From: Candidatus Omnitrophota bacterium
Lineage (GTDB): Bacteria; Omnitrophota; Gorgyraeia; Zapsychrales; Zapsychraceae
Reading direction: 5' to 3'
DNA length: 64,000 nucleotides
NCBI GenBank assembly: GCA_029261065.1
Contig: JAJDCB010000012.1
Coordinates: 77,430-141,429 of the forward strand
This document shows, piece by piece, positions 1,493-63,874 of the stretch; the first letter of the stretch is position 1, and each line of letters opens with the position of its first letter. Position numbers and translations under genes: made by a program. Under the pieces are notes generated by a model, which worked only from the letters and a program-made list of their open reading frames with translations, was not told the origin of the DNA and searched no databases.

Positions 1493-4009
1493 CTAAGGGG
1501 TGTTTTCTTTAATCCATTCGATACGTTCTTTAGCAAATTTTAGTTCATCTGTTTCAAATTTGATAACTTTTTTATAAACAATTCTGGCTTTATCCCACTC
1601 TTCTTTGTCTTCGAAAATGCGTGCAATACGTAGATAGGCTTTAACATTTAATTGTTTTTCTTCTGGATAAAGGTAAGGAATTTTTAAATACTCCTCCATG
1701 GAGCGTTTGGTATTGTTGATACTTTCATAGGTATCAGCAATGAGGAATTGAATTTCAGCATCTTTAATTTGGCTTAAACCAGTTTTAGATTTTAAGGCTT
1801 TACTATAAGATTCTATGACTTTAGTGTGTTGTTTAGTTGTTTTATGCACTTCAGCAATTTTTATATGGGCATCCCTCTTGAATTCTGGGGAAACCGTTAA
1901 GATATCTTCATATGTTGTAATGGCTGATTCAGGATCTAATTCTCTAGAAAAAATATCCGCTATAGCTAAGCGTGCTTTAGCAAATATTTCTCGGTCATTT
2001 TTTTCACTTACTCTTTTATACGCATCAATGGCTTTATCAAATTCACTCTGAGCTTCATATGTTTGTCCTAATTCAAAGAAGACAAGATCGATTTTTTCAC
2101 TTCCAGGAAATTGATGAATAAATTGTTTGTAGTAGGCTTCAGCCGCTTCAAACTCAGCTGATTGAAGATAGTGATCCCCTAACCAAATGAGGGCCTCTTG
2201 AGCAATGTCTGACTCAGGATATTTAAAAAGTAAAATTTTAAGTTTCTTTATAGCTTCTTTGGGGTCATCTAAATTATAAAGACATTTCGCGATATTTAAC
2301 TCTGCTAATTTAATGAGATTTGATTGAGTGGGAAAGCTACGCACAATTTTTTGAAAAGATTTTATGGCTGGCGTATAGTTATTTAAATTGAAATTGGATA
2401 AGCCTTGAATGTAATAACTTTCCGCTAAAAATTCTGAAGAGCCGGAATGCCCATCAATAAATTGATTAATGTATTCATTGGCAATATTCCATTCTTTTTT
2501 CTTAAAATAAGCAACGGAAAGATAATAATTAATATCATTGAGATATTTGCTTTCAGGAAAGTTGGCTTTTAGGCTTTGGAAGGATAACGTTGCTGTGTCT
2601 ATTTTGTCCATTTTAAGCAAGGCAATTCCTTGACGGTATTGAACATAATCAGTATAGGGGCTGTTTGAGTATTCTTTTAAAATGTCATCGTAGAATTCGA
2701 TTGATTTTTCTAACTCACCAGCATCTTGATAAGCATCTCCTATTTGGGTTAATGCACTAATTTTGACCACATCACTGTCGGTGCTATCTTTCACTGTTTG
2801 AAAAATGGTTACGGCTTGATCAATTTTTCCTGATTTTAAATGAGACCAGGCTAGTCCGAAATAAGCTTTCTCTAGGATATCGGTTGAATTTTGATCTTTG
2901 TTTTTATTGGCAGCAGTTAGTTTTATTTTTAAGAGTTCGATAAGTTCTTTGTAGGTTGTAATGGCATTAGAATATTTTTTTAACATATAATAAGTATTGG
3001 CCTTGCCAAGAAGAGATTCATGAATGCGTCGGCTATTAGGGAACAACTCTACAAGTTGCGTATAGGCATCAAGTGCTTTTTGCGGTTCACCCGTCTCGGT
3101 ATGCAAATTAGCTAATCCTAAAAAAACGTCATCAGATAAACTTCCCTTTTCTTGGGAGTAGGCCAGGGCTTCGTTAAAATGTTGCTCAGATAATTTGTAC
3201 TTTTGAAGTTTGAGATAGCTCCAGCCTAGACTCACCTTAGACATTAAAATGAGCTTACTATCATAAGCTTGATCGGCGGCTTTCGCATAAAAAGTTATGG
3301 CTTCCAAATAATTTTCGATGTTGTAGTGTGCTTCCCCGATGTAGAAATGTGCTTCAGATTGTTTAGTCGAATTTGGAAATCTTCTTAAGTAATCCTGAAA
3401 GTAAGCAATAGACTTATCAAAATCTTGGACATTAAATTCTGTTTCTCCTAATTTAAAAGCGGCATCTTCACTTAATTGATGAATGGGATAAGATTTTATG
3501 AGAGTTTTAAAGGTTTCACGGGCTTGTTTGTATTGTCCTTGGTCAAAATAAGCCCAACCAAGAGAATAATAAGCCTGAGGTGTATAAATAGAATCGGGAA
3601 AGAGTTCTATGAGTTGATTATAATGTTTTTGAGCATCTGCATAGTGAAAGCCTTTTAAATATGTCTCCCCTAACCAAAAAAGCGTGGCATCTTTGTATTC
3701 TTTGTGGACTAATAACTTTTCAAATACATCAAAAGCTTTTAGATATTGGCTTTGAAAGAAATAGCATTGGCCAAGAAGCAGGTTTGCTTTAATACGTTTA
3801 TCCGTTTGTGGGTACTCTTTGAGAAGTTGATCAATGTAGCGGATTGCTACATCATAGAATCCATCCTCAAATGCCTTTTGAGCCACAATAAAAAGGTCCT
3901 GATTGCTCATTTGGGCATAGCTTTTTTGGGTTGGCGGTAAGTTAAAAAAAACAATGAGGCCGATAAGTAATATTTTGATATAGGTGTTTTTTAGGAATGA
4001 CATCAGCAT
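1493..4009 (-). CDS. Large secreted tetratricopeptide-repeat (TPR) protein
   Basis: 838-aa ORF with an N-terminal signal-like hydrophobic segment, followed by more than 15 TPR-like helical repeats (W-LG-Y, A-F, P motifs). Confidence 0.7.
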   Translation of the reverse strand: MLMSFLKNTYIKILLIGLIVFFNLPPTQKSYAQMSNQDLFIVAQKAFEDGFYDVAIRYIDQLLKEYPQTDKRIKANLLLGQCYFFQSQYLKAFDVFEKLLVHKEYKDATLFWLGETYLKGFHYADAQKHYNQLIELFPDSIYTPQAYYSLGWAYFDQGQYKQARETFKTLIKSYPIHQLSEDAAFKLGETEFNVQDFDKSIAYFQDYLRRFPNSTKQSEAHFYIGEAHYNIENYLEAITFYAKAADQAYDSKLILMSKVSLGWSYLKLQKYKLSEQHFNEALAYSQEKGSLSDDVFLGLANLHTETGEPQKALDAYTQLVELFPNSRRIHESLLGKANTYYMLKKYSNAITTYKELIELLKIKLTAANKNKDQNSTDILEKAYFGLAWSHLKSGKIDQAVTIFQTVKDSTDSDVVKISALTQIGDAYQDAGELEKSIEFYDDILKEYSNSPYTDYVQYRQGIALLKMDKIDTATLSFQSLKANFPESKYLNDINYYLSVAYFKKKEWNIANEYINQFIDGHSGSSEFLAESYYIQGLSNFNLNNYTPAIKSFQKIVRSFPTQSNLIKLAELNIAKCLYNLDDPKEAIKKLKILLFKYPESDIAQEALIWLGDHYLQSAEFEAAEAYYKQFIHQFPGSEKIDLVFFELGQTYEAQSEFDKAIDAYKRVSEKNDREIFAKARLAIADIFSRELDPESAITTYEDILTVSPEFKRDAHIKIAEVHKTTKQHTKVIESYSKALKSKTGLSQIKDAEIQFLIADTYESINNTKRSMEEYLKIPYLYPEEKQLNVKAYLRIARIFEDKEEWDKARIVYKKVIKFETDELKFAKERIEWIKENTP

Positions 4010-4064
4010 ATTATAACAAAGATTTGTATGGGTTTTATAACGTTTTTAAATGAATAGATAGGTG

Positions 4065-6854
4065 TTAATTTAGCAAGGGTTTTAAGTATTTGCCTGTGTG
4101 AGATTTTTTGTGTTTGATGATTTCCTCAGGCGTTCCTGCAAAAACAAGCTCCCCTCCTTTATCTCCTCCATCAGGACCAAGATCAATCAGATAATCAGCA
4201 TTTTTGATGACTTCTAGGTTGTGTTCAATGACTAAAACGGTATTGCCTTTATCCACGAGGCGTTGTAACACAGAAAGAAGTTTTTCTACATCAGCGAAAT
4301 GGAGACCGGTTGTTGGTTCATCTAGGATGTAAAAAGTATTGCCTGTGGAGTGTTTGCATAGTTCGCTGGCTAATTTAACGCGTTGCGCCTCCCCTCCAGA
4401 TAATGTTGTTGCCTGTTGCCCTAAACGAATATAACCTAGGCCGACATCTTTTAAGGTTTTTAAAATTTTATTCACGCGGGGGATTTTATCAAAAAGCTCG
4501 ATGGCGTCTAAAACAGATAAATTCAACACATCACTAATGGTATGTCCTTTAAAGGCTACCTCTAACGTTTGTTCGGTAAAGCGTTTCCCATGGCAGATTT
4601 CGCATTCAACATAAACATCCGGTAAAAAATGCATTTCAATCTTTTTAATCCCATCCCCACGACAAGCTTCACAACGGCCTCCCTTTACATTGAAGCTAAA
4701 TCTTCCTGGTTTGTAGCCTCTCATTTTACTTTCTGGTAATTGGCAAAATAAATTTCTGACGTGGCTAAAGATTCCTGTGTATGTAGCGGGATTTGAACGT
4801 GGCGTTCGACCTATAGGGGATTGATCGACCTCAATTATTTTATCAATGTATTTAATCCCTATTATTTTCTTATGTTTTCCAGGCTTTTCTTTAGAGTGAT
4901 AGATTTTTTGAGCAAGAGCTTTGTAGAGGATTTCATCAACCAAAGTTGATTTTCCAGAGCCTGAGACGCCTGTTACGCAAACAAAACTTTTTAGAGGAAT
5001 AGTAATGTCGATATTTTTTAGATTATTTTCTTCGGCTCCTAGAATTTTTAAAATTTTATCTGCATGCATTTTTCTACGTGATGCTGGTAGCGGTATTGTT
5101 TTTCGACCGCTAAGGTACTGACCTGTTAAAGATTTTCGCGACTTTAAAAGTCCTGGCGTTGTACCAGCATAAATAATCTCCCCACCATACTCCCCTGCCC
5201 CTGGGCCTAAATCAATGACATAATCGGATTTTCGAATGGTATCTTCATCGTGTTCCACAACGATAAGAGAGTTTCCTAGATCTCTTAAATCATGAAGGGT
5301 TGCTAATAATCTTTCGTTATCTTTTTGATGAAGGCCAATGCTTGGTTCATCCAACACATAAACGACACCAACAAGGGCTGAGCCCACTTGCGTGGCTAAA
5401 CGAATACGTTCCGCCTCGCCACCTGAAAGCGTGCCGCTCTTGCGATTTAAAGTGAGATATTCTAGGCCAACATTGATGCAAAAATCTAAGCGACGGAGAA
5501 TTTCTTTAAGTATTTGTTCGCTGATCGTTTTATGATCTTTATTAAGTTTTATTGTGGAGAAGAATTTTTTAGCCTCTTTAATGGAATACTCTGTAACCTC
5601 GGCTATATTGCGTTGATTAATTTTGATAGCCAAAGCTTCTGGTTTTAATCGTGTTCCCCTACATTTGGGACATGGCAGGACAGACATGTAGCGTGTGATC
5701 TCCTCCCTTAACCAATCACTATCTGTATCTTTAAACATTCTCTCTAAATAATTAATAACCCCTTCATAAGGTTTACGCCATATTTCATCCGATGAACCAA
5801 AAAAGATAATTTTTTTAAACTTTTGAGACAGAGTATTAAAAGGGGCGTAAGCATCTTCTTCATAAAGTACGGCTAATTCGCGCATGACAGCGCGATAATA
5901 CATCAGATATCCACGCCTTCCCTTTTGGACTGGAGCAATCGCATTGACCCACGCTTTGGATGGATCTGGAACCAAAAGCTCTGGGTCGATTTCCATTTTA
6001 GTCCCTAAACCGTTACACACGACACAGGCCCCGTAGGGTGAATTAAAAGAAAAGGTTCTTGGTTCTATTTCGGATATATTGATCCCACAATCAACGCAGG
6101 CAAATTTTTCACTAAACATTTTTTCAGGTTTGGATTTATCAAATTCAACAATCAACAATCCTTGACCAACGCTAAGGGCGGTTTCAATTGAGTCCGTTAG
6201 GCGTTTTTTTATTGAAGGCTTCATTTTGAGTCGATCAACAACGACTTCGATATTATGAACTTTGTATTTATCTAGTTTGAGTTCTTCTGAAATTTCCTGA
6301 ATAGTACCGTCAACACGAATGCGTGCAAAGCCAGCTTTAGCAACCTGTTTTGTGATTTGACGATATTCGCCCTTTCGACCTTGAATGAGCGGAGCTAAAA
6401 CGGTTATGGGAGTGCCTTCTTTTTCTTTAGTGAGCTGAGAAACGATTTCTTGAGTTGATTGACGCTCAATTTTTTTGCCACATTTATGACAGTAGGGAAT
6501 TCCGATTCGAGCAAATAATAATCGAAGATAGTCAAAAAGTTCTGTTTGGGTGGCTACTGTTGAACGGGGATTACGACTGGTTGTTTTTTGTTCAATAGAT
6601 ATGGTTGGCGATAGGCCTTCAATGGACTCCACATCTGGTTTTTGGAGTTGTTCTAAGAATTGACGCGCATAGGCAGATAAACTTTCAACATAACGGCGTT
6701 GGCCTTCGGCATAGATTGTATCGAAGGCGAGAGATGATTTGCCAGAGCCGCTTAAACCTGTAATGACAACAAACTTATTGCGGGGAATTTTAAGCGAGAT
6801 GTTCTTTAGGTTGTGCTCTTTGGCTCCTCGAATTATGATGGCATCAGATTTCAC
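4065..6854 (-). CDS. uvrA: Excinuclease ABC subunit A
   Basis: 929 aa. Two ABC ATPase modules ([14 protein letters not shown] and [11 protein letters not shown] Walker A; LSGGE signatures) and zinc-finger Cys clusters. Confidence 0.95.
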
Positions 6855-8305: not shown

Positions 8306-9156
8306 CGTGCGTTAAATATAATGTTATCAATCAAGCGTGTTTTACCAAAATAGGTAGCCAGCGCAATAATTGTTCGTCCATGTAAGTGTTTTATAGGCAT
8401 TAGTGTTTTTCCATCGATACAAGTAACATATTGTATGCTCGCTTTTGTGTTCTCGTTAATGATCTTTCGAATCAATGTTTCTAGTCGTTTTGGCTTTATT
8501 GTTGATTTTTGAGCCCGTTGTTTAGCCATTTTAAGCGATTTATAGAGATATATTGCTTCTTTGCGTTGTGTCTTTGAAAGATGAGCGTTTCTTGAACTCA
8601 TCGCAAGGCCATCTTTTTCCCGAATGGTTTCGCCTATTTTTATTTGAGTTGAAAAATTTAAATCCTGAACCATCCTCTTTATTACAAAAGCTTGTTGGAT
8701 GTCTTTTTGTCCAAGATACATTGTGTGCGGTTTAACTATATTTAGGAATTTTGCCACAACCGTTGCAACACCCTTAAAATGGTTTTTTCGAAATTGACCG
8801 CATAAATGCTTTGTTATATCTTCAACTTCAATATATGTCAAAAAGCCTGACGGATACATCTCTTTTATCGACGGATAAAATATTATATCAATATTTTCTT
8901 TTTTTGCCAATAAATCATCACTTTTTTTCTGACGAGGATATTTCTTAAAATCTTCATTTGGACCGAATTGTGTGGGGTTTACAAAAACGCTAACAATTGT
9001 TAAATCATTTTCTCGTCGAGATTTTCTCATTAAGGATAAATGTCCTTTATGAAAAGCGCCCATGGTTGGAACAAAGCCAATGGATTTATTTTTAGCTTTT
9101 TCTTTTTTTAAATGTTGCTGTAAGGATTTTGTGGAATTAAATATTTTCATCGGCAA
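8302..9156 (-). CDS. panC: Pantoate--beta-alanine ligase
   Basis: 284 aa. PTMGAFHKGHLSLM HIGH-type motif, QFGPNEDF, SSRN motif. Confidence 0.9.
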   Translation of the reverse strand: MPMKIFNSTKSLQQHLKKEKAKNKSIGFVPTMGAFHKGHLSLMRKSRRENDLTIVSVFVNPTQFGPNEDFKKYPRQKKSDDLLAKKENIDIIFYPSIKEMYPSGFLTYIEVEDITKHLCGQFRKNHFKGVATVVAKFLNIVKPHTMYLGQKDIQQAFVIKRMVQDLNFSTQIKIGETIREKDGLAMSSRNAHLSKTQRKEAIYLYKSLKMAKQRAQKSTIKPKRLETLIRKIINENTKASIQYVTCIDGKTLMPIKHLHGRTIIALATYFGKTRLIDNIIFNAR

Positions 9157-57794: not shown

Positions 57795-59120
57795 CTATTT
57801 TAGGACATTTCCTTTAAGACCATGGGGGGATGCTTTGGTGATAGTGGCTTGATGGATCTCTCCCTTGTAATAAGGGCCTTTGGGCACAATAATGATCTTG
57901 TTGTTATCACAGCGAGCTAGATAATGATCCTTGGATTTGTTTGTTTCTTCTTGTTCAATCAAAACGGAATGAGTCTCTCCAATATGGGCTTCATTGCGTT
58001 CTAACGCGATCTGTTTTTGCAGCTCATTAAGTCTAACGATTCTTTCTGTTTTAATCGCCTCAGGCACATCATCTTCGTGTTTGCGTGAGGCAATGGTTTG
58101 TTTGCGTTCAGAGTATTTAAACATAAAGGCTGAATCAAAACGGACTTGTTTCATAACTTTAATTGTGTCATCAAACTCTTTATCGGTTTCGGTTGAAAAT
58201 CCAACGATGATGTCTGTGGATAAGGCGATGTTGGGGATGAGTTTTCGAGTTTTATCAACAAGCTTTAAAAATTCATCTTGTGTGTAGGTGCGATTCATTA
58301 ATTCGAGAATACGATCATTACCCGATTGCAGCGGCAGATGAATTTGTTTACAGACCTTGGGGTTTTGGGCGACCACATTAAGCAATTGATCTGGAAAATC
58401 TTTGGGATGCGGAGATGTAAAACGGATGCGTTCAATGCCGTTGACTTTTGAAACGGCTTCAAGCAGAGAAGCAAAATCATGTCCCCCCTCTTTATAAGAA
58501 TTAACATTTTGACCAAGCAACGTCACCTGCTTAAACCCATCATCCGCTAGGTGCTTAACTTCATCAACCACATTACTCACAGACCGACTTCGCTCCCGCC
58601 CTCTTGTGTAAGGAACAACACAAAACGTACAAAAATTATTACATCCGCGCATAACCGCCAACCAAGCATTCACCCCTTCTTTGCGCATCGGATAAACATC
58701 CGAATATGTCTCAAATTCAGAAAGCGTCACATCAAAATTTTTCTTACCCGTTTGATACGATTCCTGTATCAAGGCCGGCAGCCGCTTGTAACTATCGGGC
58801 CCAGCAATGAAATCAATATCTAAATTCTTATTCTCCAACAATTCTGTCCGCAAATTCGTCGCCATACACCCCAAAATCCCAATCTTAACCGGAGTCCCTT
58901 GCCGTTTATGCTTAATCTCATGCACTCTCCCATAAACCTTCCGATGCGCATGTTCCCGAATCGCACACGTATTTAACATCACCACATCTGCTGAGAGCTC
59001 ATCTTCCACAAAGCGATACTCGGCTTTACGCAGAATGGCCCTGACTAGCTCGGTGTCGTATTCGTTCATTTGGCAGCCGTAGGTTTCTATAAAAATATTT
59101 TTCTTATCTTGTTTTATCAT
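57795..59120 (-). CDS. miaB: tRNA-2-methylthio-N6-dimethylallyladenosine synthase
   Basis: 441 aa. N-terminal ETYGCQMN, radical-SAM CNNFCTFC and a TRAM C-terminal domain. Confidence 0.9.
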   Translation of the reverse strand: MIKQDKKNIFIETYGCQMNEYDTELVRAILRKAEYRFVEDELSADVVMLNTCAIREHAHRKVYGRVHEIKHKRQGTPVKIGILGCMATNLRTELLENKNLDIDFIAGPDSYKRLPALIQESYQTGKKNFDVTLSEFETYSDVYPMRKEGVNAWLAVMRGCNNFCTFCVVPYTRGRERSRSVSNVVDEVKHLADDGFKQVTLLGQNVNSYKEGGHDFASLLEAVSKVNGIERIRFTSPHPKDFPDQLLNVVAQNPKVCKQIHLPLQSGNDRILELMNRTYTQDEFLKLVDKTRKLIPNIALSTDIIVGFSTETDKEFDDTIKVMKQVRFDSAFMFKYSERKQTIASRKHEDDVPEAIKTERIVRLNELQKQIALERNEAHIGETHSVLIEQEETNKSKDHYLARCDNNKIIIVPKGPYYKGEIHQATITKASPHGLKGNVLK

Positions 59121-59198
59121 AGTGTTTTATAACAATTTCTAAAAGTCGTATATACTGCGTTCATCGTAACCATTGGTGGTAGTAAATAGGACTTCAGT

Positions 59199-60377
59199 TT
59201 AATCAGGTGTTGCTAATGCAATGTTCGAACCCTTAGCATTTAAAGAGATGTCGTAACTAGCGTGTCTCTCACCATTTGCAAACAATACTCCTGATAAATT
59301 ATAGGGTGTTTCATCTTCTAGTAGAGAATATCCACAACTTAATTCCTTTATCTCCCAATCTGTAAGAGATTTTACCTCTCCTTTTTCACTTTTGCCATTT
59401 TGGTTAATATCTTGCCAAATCGCCAAACCATTTAATTCTTGGTCAGTTAATTTTCCATCAGCATTATTGTCTAATGATTGTAGGGCTGTGTAACCATTGT
59501 CCCAAAAGAGCCAAAATGTAACATTTCCAAATAATTGTAGGGCAGAATCTATTTCACCTAACAGCTCTTTGTCAAAAACAAGAAAAGCGAAATTTGGATT
59601 AATCCATTCCCATTCTTTAGGAATGCCGCTTCCATCTAAATCAAATAATACGTATTGGTCGTTATCTTTAATTTGATCGAACTTAAGATTTTTATTTAAA
59701 GGAATGACAATGGGAGTTACTGCTCGAGGGAGTTTATCAAAATGCTGTTTGTATTGCTTTAATTTATTAATTTCAACTTGATCTTTTTCAGGATCTAAAA
59801 GTGGTATTAGGTATTCACTTGCCTCTTCCGTAATCAATGGAGAATAGCCAAATAAACTTTTCTTTTTCTTCTCATTAGGCCATGCCATCTTTATGATTTC
59901 TCTGTACCCAGAAATAGCTTCATCAATTTGCCCACTTTGTTCTAAACACCAAGTTAATCCAATTTTAATTAGTAAGTTAGCAGAATCATTGTTTAAAGCT
60001 TTTTTATGTAATTCAATTGCCTTATTCAAATATGCTTGATAAGTTTCATCTGATTCATCATTTTTCTCTATTTTTTGATTAGCGTATGGAACATTTCTTG
60101 GCTCATAACCAAACCAGGGGCCTAAATTTTCGTGCTCTTTACGAACATTTATTTCAGCTTTGTTAGATGAATATGCCATAGCGAAAGTCCGAGCTAAAGC
60201 AAAAAGTATTTGATTATTAGTTGGATCACTTTCGTATTTGGTTGTAAGATTTTGAATTAATCGTTCTATTGGTATTTTTTCTAAATCAGGGCTTCTATAT
60301 CTTGCGAAGGAAATATTAACTGAAAAAATTATGCATAAGAATGAAAGTAATAAGAAAAGTTTTTTTATGAGTTTCAT
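59199..60377 (-). CDS. Secreted protein with TPR-like helices and two EF-hand/dockerin-like Ca-binding loops
   Basis: 392 aa. Signal peptide ending SFA. C-terminal DNNADGKLTDQELNG and DINQNGKSEKGEV loops about 20 residues apart. Confidence 0.55.
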   Translation of the reverse strand: MKLIKKLFLLLSFLCIIFSVNISFARYRSPDLEKIPIERLIQNLTTKYESDPTNNQILFALARTFAMAYSSNKAEINVRKEHENLGPWFGYEPRNVPYANQKIEKNDESDETYQAYLNKAIELHKKALNNDSANLLIKIGLTWCLEQSGQIDEAISGYREIIKMAWPNEKKKKSLFGYSPLITEEASEYLIPLLDPEKDQVEINKLKQYKQHFDKLPRAVTPIVIPLNKNLKFDQIKDNDQYVLFDLDGSGIPKEWEWINPNFAFLVFDKELLGEIDSALQLFGNVTFWLFWDNGYTALQSLDNNADGKLTDQELNGLAIWQDINQNGKSEKGEVKSLTDWEIKELSCGYSLLEDETPYNLSGVLFANGERHASYDISLNAKGSNIALATPD

Positions 60378-60431
60378 TAGTTAGGATTCTCCGATTGGCA
60401 AAATTTTGTAAAGTATTTAATCATAGCCCTG

Positions 60432-60512
60432 CCCTAGTGCATCCATCGGTCAGCCGTAAGCTTCTATAAATATTTTCTTTTGTAAAGTGTTGTTTATCAT
60501 AGTTTTATAAAT
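60432..60512. repeat. Family D repeat: degenerate copy of the miaB promoter-proximal region plus its first ~14 codons
   Basis: The minus strand reads atgataaacaacactttacaaaagaaaatatttatagaagcttacggctga. Compare miaB atgataaaacaagataagaaaaatatttttatagaaacctacggctgc. Confidence 0.65.
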
Positions 60513-60573
60513 TATCATATACGTTCAACGGTTAAATTTTTCAGATGAATGAGTATGACATTTAATTTTTTAG

Positions 60574-61044
60574 TTATTTAGTATATCTATTTCGATGGTT
60601 TTCGGGTATCTTTTTAATTATTTGATATTTTTCTTCAAAATTTCCATAAATATCTGCACTGCAATCAAAATTCTTTTGATTATGAGCAATGTACTCAACT
60701 ATTGGCAATACTTCAGACATAATTGGAAAAATATCATCTGGCTTTTTGTTGAGCTTTTCTTCTACTAAGTTAATAAAGCAACTTGCTGCATCAGAGGCGT
60801 CAACAATTCTTTCATTTGGTATATTGATTGATTGAATATAATTCCCAAAGCCAAGCATATAATAACGAAAAGGGACTTTGGACATGAATCTTAATTCACT
60901 CGCTCGTTCAATTACACATCGGTCGAAATGTTCTCGCATCTCGTCATTTGTTTTTCCAATAAATAGATCATGGGCATAAGACGCGTCTATGCACCCTTTA
61001 TAGTTTTCCCAATCACTTTCTGATGGTACTGGTAGTTTTGTCAT
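60574..61044 (-). CDS. Hypothetical protein
   Basis: 156-aa ORF overlapping the downstream end of the dinD-like gene by 4 nt. No recognised motif. Confidence 0.45.
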   Translation of the reverse strand: MTKLPVPSESDWENYKGCIDASYAHDLFIGKTNDEMREHFDRCVIERASELRFMSKVPFRYYMLGFGNYIQSINIPNERIVDASDAASCFINLVEEKLNKKPDDIFPIMSEVLPIVEYIAHNQKNFDCSADIYGNFEEKYQIIKKIPENHRNRYTK

Positions 61045-61879
61045 TTCTTTTTTATTTGTTTCTTCTTGGGAGAAGGCAAAAAATTCTCTTTTGAGATAAT
61101 ACTTTTTCCCGATTTTCTTTCTAATTCTTTTCTTGCCTTCTTGGCAATGCCGCCGCCTTTTTTGCTAGCAATTTTATTTTCAGTCATGCCAGTAGCTTGT
61201 ACGCTATCTGCTATTTGTCTTGTAGATAATTCAGCTAACGCGGTAAAAATAAGTTCGGCTTCCGTCATATGATCTCGCAGATTTTGCGTTTTAATCCTTT
61301 GATTTTTTTATGATCTTTGATATTTAGATCAGACCATTCTTGGTGAATAATATTTGTTAGAATCGCAAATTCATCATCGTTGCTAATATCATGGTCTTTC
61401 CAATAATCCGTTAACTTATTACGGGTCTCCTGACCCATCATTCGTTGCTGAATCCATTTTTTACTTCTACCCTGCTTTTGCCAATATTCACGTGAACGAT
61501 TGAGAGCTTTTTCAGGATCAGTCATCTCCTGCATTCTTTCATATCCTACTTTAGCTAGCCATAATTTGATTGGTTCTGCTTTGGGACTAGGAACAGATTG
61601 AACCAAGCGAAGAATAGTTTCAACATTTGCTGCGTCAGTTTTGTAAAATTTTCCATCACTGGACTGCATTTTCAGTTTGTCACATTTTGTGACAGACTCA
61701 TTTTCTTCCTTTTTTAGACGACTTTTTAGAGTCGTCCAGTAACTTTGAGCTTTCTTGAAGTCTTTTTGCTCTACCAACACAGCAATAATATCAATGACAG
61801 AGAAATACCATTTTTCCTGCTTTTCATCATATATTCTACGAATTTTATAATTTTCAAATACAGCCAATGTACTTTTCAC
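61041..61879 (-). pseudogene. dinD: DNA-damage-inducible protein D (DinD)-like Bro-N domain gene, split into 204-aa and 75-aa ORFs by a frameshift
   Basis: The N-terminal Bro-N pattern (FENYKIRRIYDEKQEKWYFSVIDIIAVL) and the C-terminal parts align colinearly with the remembered E. coli DinD sequence. The second ORF frame is open upstream and encodes QNLRDHMTEAEL, matching DinD QKILDHMGSTEL. The frame switch falls at an A4 tract (ttaaaacg). Confidence 0.5.
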
Positions 61880-61899
61880 TTTACTTCATCTCCTATTTA

Positions 61900-61990
61900 A
61901 ATTCTCTCATTTTCTTGTTCTGTAACATAAACATTCTCAATGATTTCCAACACTGCCGTACGCCACTGGTACATACGGTCAGCCATATGT
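61900..61990. repeat. Family D repeat (miaB 5'-end-derived, internally deleted) with palindrome ccgtatgtaccagtggcgtacgg
   Basis: Shares about 75 bp with 62822-62935, including ctgccgtacgccactggtacatacggtcagcc. Confidence 0.65.
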
Positions 61991-62002
61991 TTCATATTTC
62001 CT

Positions 62003-62737
62003 CTATTCAGGCCCTGATTCGTTCTCAGGACAATAAATATTATGACCAAAATCAATAAGATTACATCTTTGATCAAATTTATAATAAAAATTTGCAAATT
62101 GAACTACTTGAATTTGGTCCTTAGCGCTACATGGTGGCAAAGGAATCCCAGTCAGTAACGCTGCAGCATAATTCATGCCCTTTTTTAACTTATGGATATT
62201 CTGACAATAGGCAGAAGCCAGTCCTAATTCTGTAGTTGGGAAAATTTGAGTTGTAATCTCTTTTTTCCTACCTGTTCTTATTTCCATTTCTCTAAGCATT
62301 TCTGTTAATTGTCTATTATCATAAACCTTCCCGGACTCAAAAGTTAGTTTTCCTGTACGATTTTCAGTTTTTCTAAAACGAAAATGTTTTGTTTCGCGCC
62401 TCTCAGTAATCTCATAATGTGTACCTTTATCTCGCCGGCTGATTTCTTTCCAAACGTAGTGTGGATCATAATATTTTTCATAATAAGAATAAACAATGTC
62501 GTGTTCTCCAGGCGCTAGAAATACCTTGCTCCAAAAAACAAACCCAACTTGCGGATGTTTCTCGCCATCAATTTTGACAAGAACAAATCGACCGTCTTTC
62601 CCGCCTCCCATGCCTTTTAGCTCAACCAATTCAGATTTTGTTAAATTTGCAGCACTAGAAGGCAAATAAACGGTCTTTGCGCAGCCAGTTAAAATAAATA
62701 AAACACACAACAAAATTAAGTATTGAATTCTTTTCAT
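62003..62737 (-). CDS. Lipoprotein, hypothetical
   Basis: MKRIQYLILLCVLFILTGC lipobox. The ORF-track start at 62815 adds 26 residues, so the start is placed at the Met before the signal peptide. Confidence 0.55.
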   Translation of the reverse strand: MKRIQYLILLCVLFILTGCAKTVYLPSSAANLTKSELVELKGMGGGKDGRFVLVKIDGEKHPQVGFVFWSKVFLAPGEHDIVYSYYEKYYDPHYVWKEISRRDKGTHYEITERRETKHFRFRKTENRTGKLTFESGKVYDNRQLTEMLREMEIRTGRKKEITTQIFPTTELGLASAYCQNIHKLKKGMNYAAALLTGIPLPPCSAKDQIQVVQFANFYYKFDQRCNLIDFGHNIYCPENESGPE

Positions 62738-62821
62738 ATTAAGGTTTTTTTCAACAAATTTTTTAAACTGTAAAACTGACACGTGATTTTTATATGAGAA
62801 ATTGTAATTTTTCAATAGCTA

Positions 62822-62935
62822 ACATAAACAGCTTCAATAATTTGCAACACTGCCGTATACCACTGGTACATACGGTCAGCCGTAGGTTTCAAGAAATATT
62901 TTCTTTGTATCTTGTTTCATATCAATCACTTAATT
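62822..62935. repeat. Family D repeat: degenerate miaB 5' end plus hairpin
   Basis: The minus strand reads atgaaacaagatacaaagaaaatatttcttgaaacctacggctga (MKQDTKKIFLETYG then stop), followed by ccgtatgtaccagtggtatacgg. Confidence 0.7.
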
Positions 62936-63190
62936 TTCCGTCCTTTTGGTGTTCATCTGCTGTCTAGAAAATTAAAAATTTGAAATTTTATGCATAGTAT
63001 TTAGCTTCAATATTTTACGAGAAATTCTTGTGTCGTACTCATTGATCTCCCTTTCTTCGAAAAGAAGAGAATTTATAATTTATAACATTGTGGATTATAC
63101 AATTAATGGGTAGGAAATGCAAGGTACACGATTTTGCGTAACATTAAACTTATAGTAGGATTATTAATGTATGCAAAGAAAACCTTTTGT

Positions 63191-63874
63191 TTATTCTTTC
63201 TGAAGTCTTTCTCGATGATGTTTGACCATCTTTGCCTGAATCATGTAGATAACATCTTCCGCAATCGCAGAAGCATGATCACAAATACGCTCTAAATCCC
63301 TAGCAACTAATAATAGAGGCACTGCTCTCGGGGCAGTCGTTCCATCTTTAACCATGTAATCATTAATAAGTTCTTTAATAATCAGAGTCCTCAACTTATT
63401 GGACTCATTATCCGATAGAATAACTTTTTTAGCCATATCCTCATCTCGTTTTACGAAAGAATCAATAGAGTTATGTACCATCGTTTTAGCTTGGCTGGCT
63501 AACTTGGGAATATCAATTAAAGGCTTAAGAAGGGGTTGATCTGCAACTTCCAACACTCTTTGGGAAATATTAACGGTTAAATCAGCTATCCTTTCTAACT
63601 CCGCATTAATATGCATACCTGTCGTAATGAATCGCAAATCAATAGCCATTGGCTGAAATAGAGCTAGTAACTCGATAATCTCCTCCTCTATTTCAATCTC
63701 TAATTCATCGATTCGTTGATCCTCCTCAATTACTTTATTCGCCAAATCCTTATCTCTCTTTTTCAAAGCATCTATCGATTTATGGATTGCCTCTTCCACC
63801 AATGTTGCCATTTTAAGGAGATTGGTCTTTAACTTACTTAATTCTTCATCTAAATGTCTTTCCATATTATCCAA
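63191..63874 (-). CDS. phoU: Phosphate transport system regulator PhoU
   Basis: 227 aa, two PhoU repeats (E-ELD-IEIEEEI, D-V-ER-DHA motifs). TTG start overlaps the pstB stop. Confidence 0.85.

Follow-up and report, generated by a model that had tools for sequence, protein, structure and literature searches.

What gathers a row of accessory genes in front of a housekeeping gene and places a broken copy of that gene's own beginning before each of them? The question is raised by the interval between phoU and miaB in a 64-kb stretch of a Candidatus Omnitrophota genome (contig JAJDCB010000012.1), referred to here as the window. An initial annotation divided the interval into three gene blocks, each preceded by a degenerate copy of the miaB 5′ end, and attributed them to serial site-specific integration by elements that bring miaB a replacement promoter and N-terminus. 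Here, we describe a computational analysis of this locus and of its counterparts in other genomes and metagenomes. The preferred reading, to which we assign a probability of roughly 60%, is that the interval is an array of co-oriented cassettes lacking a recombinase gene, produced by repeated site-specific recombination at an attachment (att) site in codons 12–16 of miaB. The observation is real, the recombinase is its missing piece, and the locus is of interest to mobile-element specialists.

Architecture of the phoU–miaB Interval

The interval holds four cassettes, whose cargoes are a lipoprotein gene, a dinD-like gene, an open reading frame (ORF) of 156 amino acids (aa), and a TPR/SPM protein gene, together with the remnant of a fifth. 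Each cassette consists of an R end, the cargo, and an L end that comprises a ribosome-binding region and working miaB codons 1–14, and consecutive cassettes meet in an L.R unit. The features are given below from phoU to miaB as positions within the window; the genes and units of the interval are read on the minus strand.

63191–63874, minus strand: phoU, the distal boundary gene (Pfam PhoU, 6e-45)
62921–62975, minus strand: cassette remnant adjoining phoU, left from the 3′ end of a fifth cassette that is otherwise deleted (cagcagATGAACaccaaaaggacggaaaattaagtgattgat), which runs into unit 1
62820–62920, minus strand: L.R unit 1, reading MKQDTKKIFLETYG-stop (nhmmer, 7e-13)
62003–62737, minus strand: cargo 1, a predicted lipoprotein (MKRIQYLILLCVLFILTGC, lipobox by eye) with no Pfam family
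61923–61995, minus strand: L.R unit 2, with an internally deleted L part (ATGAAACA|TATGGCTG)
61041–61879, minus strand: cargo 2, a DinD-like Bro-N gene (Pfam Bro-N) frameshifted into ORFs of 204 and 75 aa
60995–61044, minus strand: L.R unit 3, decayed; its ATG now starts the 156-aa ORF and its core is mutated (GTACCATCAGAAAGTGATTGG)
60574–61044, minus strand: cargo 3, the 156-aa ORF, with no family match
60514–60553, minus strand: "module X", an imperfect hairpin (actcaTTCATCtg-loop-ccgTTGAACgtatatgat)
60378–60500, minus strand: L.R unit 4, with L part MINNTLQKKIFIEAYG, core at 60458–60451, and a TGA stop
59199–60377, minus strand: cargo 4, a secreted TPR/SPM protein with EF-hand-like loops (Pfam TPR_19 and SPM, precomputed)
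59145–59166, minus strand: direct motif resembling miaB codons 16–22 (cgATGAACgcagtatatacgac), 26–47 nucleotides (nt) 5′ of the native start
59074–59120, minus strand: functional miaB L part and core (MIKQDKKNIFIETYG; core TACGGCTG at 59081–59074)
57795–59120, minus strand: miaB, an intact 441-aa ORF (Pfam UPF0004, Radical_SAM, and TRAM; UPF0004 from residue 9)

The degenerate copies first placed at 62822–62935, 61900–61990, and 60432–60512 correspond to units 1, 2, and 4; they are found on the minus strand, are specific to this locus, and exceed chance. Patterns of 24–26 nt derived from the units match solely at these sites in the 64 kb (0 expected, 100 shuffles), and TAYGGCTGACCG has 3 matches in the window against 0.1 expected. 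A dispersed repeat, which would have no preference for this locus, was rejected, as the window holds no further copies and the repeats found elsewhere form co-oriented arrays that lie mostly at miaB or a methylthiotransferase gene. Blocks bounded by repeats are thus confirmed, but their number is four, because the 156-aa ORF begins with a decayed unit downstream of dinD (60995–61044), and a fifth survives as the remnant beside phoU.

The L part of unit 1 runs from the ATG at 62920 to the core TACGGCTG at 62884–62877, with the TGA stop at 62878–62876, and its R end belongs to family B, in which the 72-nt segment after the stop holds the palindrome ccgtatgtaccagtggtatacgg. The R end of unit 2 is also of family B and is 88% identical to that of unit 1 across these 72 nt, in keeping with the palindrome originally reported after the breakpoint of two copies. 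Unit 3 aligns with the L.R units located after dinD in L119 and L027 (labels L001–L027 denote genome loci and L102–L117 metagenome contigs obtained by a scan with a junction pattern). The R end of unit 4 is of family A and extends to the start of cargo 4. As had been stated, the copies end in a stop where miaB continues: TGA stands at a cysteine codon in units 1, 2, and 4, and the native miaB start at 59120 reads MIKQDKKNIFIETYGCQMN. In module X, the right half resembles native miaB codons 16–22 and the left arm is an inverted copy of the right half. Window positions 62957–62908, at the remnant, are 90% identical to L027 9242–9291, which comprises the end of a 142-aa ORF and its L end. The array in the window looks old because it contains a deleted L part, a decayed unit fused to an ORF, a frameshifted dinD, and a stub cassette.

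The L.R Unit as a Diverged miaB 5′ End

In a unit, the start codon and miaB codons 1–14 make up the L part; the 8-bp core TAYGGNTG follows, and then the R part, whose first bases are TGACCG. The miaB sequence GGC TGC CAA ATG becomes GGC TGA CCG ATG in the units, which turns the cysteine codon into a stop, and R nearly always begins with ACCG. TAYGGCTG|ACCG is common to all three of the pseudo-copies first described, and the native sequence is TACGGCTG|CCAAATG. The DNA after the breakpoint is related to miaB as well: it is a diverged mimic, 40–100 nt long, of miaB codons 15 to ~35. Family A keeps the frame of miaB and the methionine codon, and family B has one additional base, with M-Y-Q-W-R-T-A-V-L aligning with M-N-E-Y-D-T-E-L-V. 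Intermediates between the native sequence and the R mimic occur elsewhere (ETYGCQMDAV-stop and MDKYD). The L and R parts are both derived from miaB; therefore, judged from these alignments, the unit corresponds to about −45 to +100 of miaB in diverged form, the cysteine codon having been replaced by a stop.

The R ends fall into families A, A′, B, B″, C, and D, of which C and D contain small GC-rich hairpin insertions. The best-conserved block, aAC.TAcGGCTGaCCGatgG (~20 nt), is centered on the L/R boundary among 16 units that were not chosen by the search pattern. The units contain a short dyad, CGG-CTGA-CCG, which family B extends to TACGGCTGACCGTA plus the palindrome. Unit copies inside one array are 64–88% identical, with longest exact shared runs of ~14 nt (by eye).

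The array might instead be an integron array without its integrase (a cluster of attC sites lacking integron-integrases, CALIN), in which the units would serve as attC sites. Small, co-oriented, mostly single-gene cassettes, cargo of integron type (toxin–antitoxin systems, secreted proteins, and proteins of unknown function), and an array free of recombinase genes would all be expected of a CALIN. However, single-strand DNA folding of the units gave no consistent hairpin past the short dyad (z-scores of most units were close to 0 on either strand), and attC-like folding was rejected. Paired RYYYAAC/GTTRRRY core sites were not seen by eye, the units are diverged copies of a gene 5′ end, which attC sites are not, and no intI is present in the window, where the array is flanked by phoU/pst and miaB/nadA. 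We give this explanation almost no credence.

As a separate observation, R ends are broken at varying positions by GC-rich palindromic insertions such as GCCCTGAGCGAGCGCAAGCGAGTCGAAGGGG and CCTGCCTGCCGGTCGGCAGG, which resemble miniature hairpin repeats. The insertion sites are L103 405–440, L110 12565–12600, L117 1830–1850, L113 795–850, and L155 ~3850–3880. For these and other side coordinates, the contigs L113, L117, L116, L108, L104, and L115 were re-oriented as their reverse complements.

The Core as a Recombination Breakpoint

One cassette, made up of an R end of family B, dinD, and the L part SKIYLRTYG, is present in the window, in L027, and in L119, each time with different neighbors. 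Between the window and L119, homology begins exactly at TAYGGCTG|ACCGTA, and the L parts upstream are unrelated. Between L119 and L027, homology continues through dinD and the L part SKIYLRTYG to GGMTGACC, beyond which the R families differ. The TPR/SPM cargo has a 71% homolog in L152, from a second metagenome, where it lies directly 5′ of a methylthiotransferase gene and is preceded by an A′-type R unit; the R ends of this cassette are of A/A′ type in both the window and L152 (by eye).

A comparison between an occupied and an empty site, as the initial annotation had proposed, is available from L152 on the one hand and L155 and L153 on the other. In the empty loci, a conserved MerR-like gene abuts the methylthiotransferase gene and the sequence continues as coding past the core. 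The occupied and empty loci are homologous through the 5′ untranslated region (UTR) and the L part to GGNTG.CAGATGRAC and diverge ~10 nt past GGNTG, which places the break at the core ±10 nt. The distal L part of L152 matches the native L part of L155. From this comparison, L152 shows what appears to be the entry of a new cassette next to the functional gene.

The two flanks of the core behave as separate modules. Among 26 units, the distances of L and R flanks, based on identities aligned with penalized ends, are uncorrelated (Spearman 0.04, permutation p 0.32), which indicates independent assortment, and pairs of units with an R identity of at least 0.85 have L identities of 0.45–0.72, the background level. 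Because cassettes recur with breaks at the core, L and R assort independently, and an occupied site can be set against empty ones, serial site-specific integration that swaps the 5′ end of the gene, as first put forward, is well supported.

The same data bear on two routes that would need no dedicated recombinase, namely homologous (Campbell-type) recombination of incoming DNA via a miaB-like segment of ~150 nt and duplication of the miaB 5′ end in place, with later divergence and the capture of genes. In their favor, L and R alike derive from miaB and offer homology on either side of the core, the few units that remain native-like past the core could reflect variable crossover points, and L007 has cargo-less 60-nt units in tandem. 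These routes nevertheless fit poorly with in-array copies as diverged as those described above and with the absence of correlation between L and R; moreover, R families are found across genomes, travel with particular cargo, and are unlike the local miaB. Independent local duplication is disfavored because nearly all units, though from unrelated samples, have the same TGACCG change. Neither route seems at all probable as the origin of the arrays.

Arrays in Other Genomes and Metagenomes

In ~20 further contigs, miaB or a methylthiotransferase gene related to it is preceded by the same architecture. Among the genome loci, extra units lie 5′ of miaB in L002, L004, and L027; L005, L007, and L010 have cargo-less scars or motif copies only; and L001, L006, L008, L009, L011, and L012 have no extra copy within 10 kb of miaB. 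Relatives thus range from no extra copy to several different cassettes, a variability that speaks against the conserved, repeat-free gene order that had been named as evidence against serial integration. A metagenome scan with TTYNTNGARRCNTAYGGCTGACCG matched 16 contigs, all of which (16/16) contain true units. The native miaB start lies downstream in 5/16, as a full gene in L103, L104, and L117, truncated where the contig stops in L114, and as a 23-codon stub in L105. Arrays of two to four units are present in L102, L104, L108, L111, and L117. Further loci were reached through the contexts of cargo homologs (L119–L124, L125, L152, L154, and L155), with units in L119, L125, L152, L154, and L155.

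All units found by a profile search (nhmmer) are on the miaB strand. Spacing between cores ranges from ~0.14 to 6.4 kb and is mostly near 1 kb. Cargo-poor cassettes occur at L108 580–853 and L104 7163–7318, where consecutive units are 273 and 155 nt apart, respectively; in the first unit of L108, TGG replaces the TGA stop. Each tandem unit of L007 comprises TTCATCTG...ATGAAC..CTACGAC and a TATAAT-like stretch. A truncated unit (FFETYG-stop and a family B-like R end) at L116 6690–6760 is located in a contig of 65% GC, which suggests that the units have reached hosts other than low-GC Omnitrophota or that the assembly is chimeric.

A Proposed Mechanism and the Search for Its Enzyme

In the preferred reading, a cassette would exist as a circle in which L and R are joined across the 8-bp core TAYGGNTG. 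An enzyme acting in trans would carry out a conservative site-specific crossover with the resident miaB, in or beside the core, and would place the L end of the cassette before the gene. The displaced L end would move outward, joined to the R end of the cassette, and its translation would stop after 14 codons. On this model, miaB stays intact because the incoming cassette supplies a replacement L end, and the L part of the functional miaB in the window would have been supplied by the innermost cassette. Repeated events at the functional gene would stack cassettes, with the newest probably nearest miaB. A tyrosine recombinase would fit the 8-bp identical overlap, and a serine recombinase would fit the central TG in the partial dyad TACGGC-TG-ACCGTA. 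The cargo may be expressed by read-through.

Of the two parts that each element was initially proposed to replace, the N-terminus is consistent with the comparison of L152 with L155 and with the intact miaB; for the promoter, a scan of the L end stayed at chance level.

Searches for the enzyme were negative. No tyrosine or serine recombinase motif was found by regular expression in the window or in 20 array loci, and no Phage_integrase, Recombinase, or Resolvase family appears in the Pfam or precomputed tables of array genes, later array loci included. The initial report that the window lacks an integrase, intI, and a tRNA gene holds. A known RNA or tRNA as the target was likewise rejected, as the window has no Rfam match and no tRNA gene. 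A 639-aa protein encoded 5′ of the MerR-like gene in L153 and L154 was considered as a recombinase and set aside, since it has no such features by eye and no precomputed Pfam match.

These negative results bear on a second explanation, which shares the insertion chemistry of the preferred reading and differs in that the small size is secondary. The cassettes would be decayed stumps of larger integrative elements (prophages, integrative and conjugative elements, ICEs, or integrative and mobilizable elements, IMEs) stacked at the miaB 5′ end in the manner of cis-mobilizable elements (CIMEs). Elements with att sites at both ends but no integrase are known to arise by tandem accretion and subsequent decay (PMC5704250); decay is visible in the window (the frameshifted dinD, the deleted L part, and the stub cassette), insertion sequence (IS) elements have landed in arrays, and L102 has a multigene cassette of 6.4 kb. 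Set against this, no integrase, integrase fragment, conjugation gene, or phage gene was found in ~30 cassettes of ~15 independent arrays, a one-gene cassette retains both ends intact in three genomes, and single co-oriented genes of ~1 kb are not expected from random deletion of large elements. We consider it unlikely that the arrays arose in this way.

Several findings weigh against repeated site-specific recombination at miaB or exceed its simplest form. No recombinase is linked to the site in the arrays examined, and neither an excised circle nor a free L.R junction was seen among the contigs examined; scans of IMG/VR viral contigs gave only chance matches in three cases and none in two. 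The promoter scan mentioned above counts here as well. The crossover is placed no better than the core ±10 nt, the similarity of the A′ subfamily to the native gene continues through CAGATGRAC, and a few units retain the cysteine codon. Units also occur away from an intact miaB in L105, L110, L115, and L116: the array at L105 11335–11445 ends in a genuine 23-codon miaB stub (..ETYGCQMNEYDS) followed by a non-miaB gene read as lpxI, the last unit at L115 1179–1480 adjoins a gene read as glycyl-tRNA synthetase, and the units of L110 are downstream of a cluster read as ribosomal-protein genes. Three tandem, cargo-free units of ~60 nt 5′ of the native miaB at L007 783–960, and the extra codon 16–22 motif of module X, fall outside the simple model. 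Given the decay seen in the window array, activity of the system in this genome may have ceased.

Comparison with Known Systems

The statement that the array could not be mapped to any described system goes too far, since precedents exist for its separate parts. Elements of the SXT/R391 group integrate in prfC and replace the 5′ end of the gene (PMC4542580). Islands that encode a DusA-associated integrase replace the dusA 5′ end, and the MiaB-like gene rimO is a target in Polaromonas (PMC4482086). As in SXT/prfC and dusA, insertion here would be in the 5′ coding end of a housekeeping gene, with a replacement 5′ end provided and the old end left at the far junction. The corresponding features are an intact miaB preceded by pseudo-copies of codons 1–14 with a stop and a displaced distal remnant in L152 and in window units 1–4. 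The dusA islands also resemble the present case in that the target, like miaB, is a tRNA-modification gene. SXT and dusA elements, however, are tens of kb long and carry their own tyrosine integrase beside the att site, whereas the cassettes described here are ~1 kb long, usually hold one gene, and have no integrase in the arrays examined. Unlike those elements, they mimic the target to either side of the crossover and have a stop at the cysteine codon.

CIMEs are integrase-less elements that are stacked at one att site and are served by an integrase in trans (PMC5704250). Like the present cassettes, they are bounded by attL/attR direct repeats and are without integration and transfer genes. 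They are, however, decayed ICEs or IMEs, usually located beside a functional relative, and no such relic or helper is present in the ~30 cassettes; in further contrast to CIMEs, the pattern here spans many Omnitrophota-like genomes. The ssrA islands of Dehalococcoides each carry a recombinase and target the 3′ end of the gene. Their tandem arrangement at this single-copy gene is the subject of one report (PMC3146451).

The likeness to integrons and CALINs lies in a fixed insertion point by a promoter-proximal site, in small co-oriented cassettes, in accessory cargo rich in toxin–antitoxin genes and genes of unknown function, in arrays that lack a recombinase, and in the newest cassette being probably nearest the site. 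The difference is that attC structure, attC core sites, and IntI are absent here, that the unit imitates the beginning of a gene, and that insertion is inside a coding sequence of essential type. Integrative mobile elements exploiting Xer (IMEX) at dif, and pdif modules on Acinetobacter plasmids, carry a mimic of the host site, rely on the host recombinase, and form arrays by serial integration. In the arrays described here, no encoded recombinase was found. In comparison with dif sites, the present site does not look like one for chromosome dimer resolution and is a ~20-nt block with a short dyad in which no 11-6-11 motif was recognized, the phylum's own dif sequence not being at hand for this comparison. 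Sites of the pdif type alternate in orientation, whereas the units here are all direct.

Literature searches turned up neither a description of miaB as an insertion site of this type nor any mention of the arrays in Omnitrophota. Replacement of a gene 5′ end and integrase-less accretion are thus already known, and a miaB att site with cassette arrays, as proposed here, was not found reported. If an enzyme does act in trans, the system would combine the gene-capture logic of integrons with the target repair of SXT and dusA elements in a largely uncultured phylum whose mobile elements have barely been described. A defined core of ~20 bp and dozens of natural substrates would make a search for the recombinase by co-occurrence feasible. 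A recombinase whose insertions target a near-universal coding motif (..TYGCQMN..) and leave the gene intact would be of interest to genome engineers, and the arrays would mark where Omnitrophota keep toxin–antitoxin, Fic, and stress genes. If the cassettes are only decayed islands, the locus would still provide a new att site and a neat example of accretion.

Cargo of the Cassettes

A cassette contains 0–7 genes in the orientation of miaB, the exceptions being three unrelated IS/transposon insertions. The cargo families comprise Bro-N, TPR/SPM, RelA_SpoT, a Gp49 toxin with antitoxin (twice), RhuM with Fic, Fic, Zeta toxin, an AbiEi-like protein, metallophosphatase, redoxin, ferritin, glyoxalase, cupin, TPR, and many secreted proteins or proteins of no family. 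The accessory character first ascribed to the cargo is evident in the window (lipoprotein, secreted protein, and Bro-N) and is reinforced elsewhere by the toxin–antitoxin and Fic genes. The designation of cargo 4 as an EF-hand protein stands in part: its Pfam families are TPR_19 and SPM, but two DxNxDG loops are visible and some homologs have EF-hand Pfam families. The dinD-like assignment of cargo 2 is confirmed by Bro-N, although the gene is frameshifted; an intact 279-aa DinD-like counterpart exists in L027 and in many other genomes.

The dinD cassette of the window is 79.6% identical in nucleotide sequence to L027 7295–8214 over 930 nt, compared with 67% for miaB. This difference would be weak evidence for transfer and is given little weight because DinD-like proteins show exceptional conservation wherever they occur. 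Identity within the family is at least 78% across Omnitrophota, Patescibacteria/Candidate Phyla Radiation (CPR), Saganbacteria, and Margulisbacteria, which is unusual for an accessory gene, and the CPR lineages that have it include Roizmanbacteria, Moranbacteria, and Uhrbacteria.

Transposable elements directly follow an L.R unit in three genomes: a Mutator/IS256-type element at L110 12676–13653 (minus strand), an rve and AAA_22 pair at L102 8029–10161 (minus strand), and an IS30-like HTH_38 and rve element at L119 8925–9911 (minus strand). The L110 and L102 coordinates refer to re-oriented contigs (the reverse complement for L102). In L102, the R end is cut short at ...GCACT|TGTAGAC. The adjoining transposases were rejected as mobilizers of the cassettes, since they belong to three different families, lie on the opposite strand, and occur in one genome each, as opportunistic insertions would. 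An origin of the units from a transposon or IS element with target-site duplication was rejected as well: the insertions are only these three, and the units are 64–88% identical with element-specific R ends. In L154, positions 1881–4414, 5′ of the MerR-like gene, encode a DUF2971 protein and a 581-aa DAC-domain (diadenylate-cyclase-type) protein, which may be defense-related cargo.

Start Codons, MerR-like Genes, and Copies of Codons 16–22

A conserved MerR_1/HTH_17 (excisionase-like) family of 125–174 aa has 225 homologs, of which those with a named source are from Omnitrophota. Its gene lies directly 5′ of miaB or the related methylthiotransferase gene in 4/4 loci examined:

L153, 2188–2580: MerR-like gene
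L155, 8001–8525: MerR-like gene
L152, 20–397: MerR-like gene
L154, 6423–6815: MerR-like gene

The MerR-like N-terminus (..KVYPYGSEEQQ) mimics that of MiaB, as if the gene had begun as the ORF of an ancient cassette and been joined to an L start. Two cargo ORFs begin at the start codon of an L part, namely the 156-aa ORF of the window and the MerR-like family (N-terminus ..KVYPYGSEE), which suggests that the L start codon is used.

Use of the start codon would agree with an explanation in which the units are primarily modules for expression or regulation, each made up of the miaB start, a leader ORF of 14 codons, and an element further downstream, that were co-opted for accessory genes and spread by selection. 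Many units have an ATG 3 nt after the stop, a terminator scan stayed at chance level and gave no intrinsic, terminator-like site between cassettes on the gene strand, and a 5′ UTR segment complementary to codons 16–22 covaries with them in some genomes. The explanation leaves cassette movement and the breaks of homology at the core unaccounted for. A micropeptide in the R end was also rejected: its conservation looks peptide-like by eye, but a codon-position test gave no robust coding signal, with unconvincing counts of 7/6/8 and 5/2/8 variable columns. A regulatory function and a recombination site are compatible, which makes such modules an addition more than a rival; as a full account of the arrays they are highly improbable.

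Copies of the codon 16–22 motif, direct or inverted, are present at many cassette 3′ ends and in some native 5′ UTRs. An inverted copy is located in the 5′ UTR, ~100–120 nt upstream, in L002, L007, L117, L153, and L155, with 13–15/18 matches (p ≤ 0.005 versus shuffles), and it is absent at the native miaB of the window. The paired positions are 8590–8610 and 8709–8730 in L155 and ~2645–2665 and 2765–2785 in L153. The inverted copy covaries with the coding sequence, as TCCCT/AGGGA in L153 and GTCGTA/TACGAC in L155, and could be one strand of a long-range RNA helix, part of a DNA inverted repeat around the gene start, a second binding site, or the trace of past recombination.

A broader version of the preferred reading may be considered, although we hold it to be doubtful. 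Omnitrophota would possess a phylum-wide, integron-like capture platform of a new kind, in which the first 15 codons of miaB and of a related methylthiotransferase gene serve as the primary site, cassettes of ~1 kb bring a replacement start and a stop-containing mimic of the 20 codons that follow, a dedicated recombinase is encoded elsewhere in the genome, and the MerR-like gene and the inverted UTR copy belong to the machinery or its substrate.

Neighboring Genes in the Window

The proteins closest to the MiaB of the window are 57–75% identical and are found in metagenome-assembled genomes mostly labeled Candidatus Omnitrophota; a search for the exact MiaB sequence gave no match. nadA lies downstream of miaB in the window, as it does in L002 and L027. 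Read by eye, the ORFs in the remainder of the window look like operons of housekeeping genes, among them arg, dap, suf, isp, and uvrA. On the distal side, an identical 9.3-kb Logan contig (L118, SRR15505515), located by means of the Bro-N protein, places pstSCAB further upstream of phoU.

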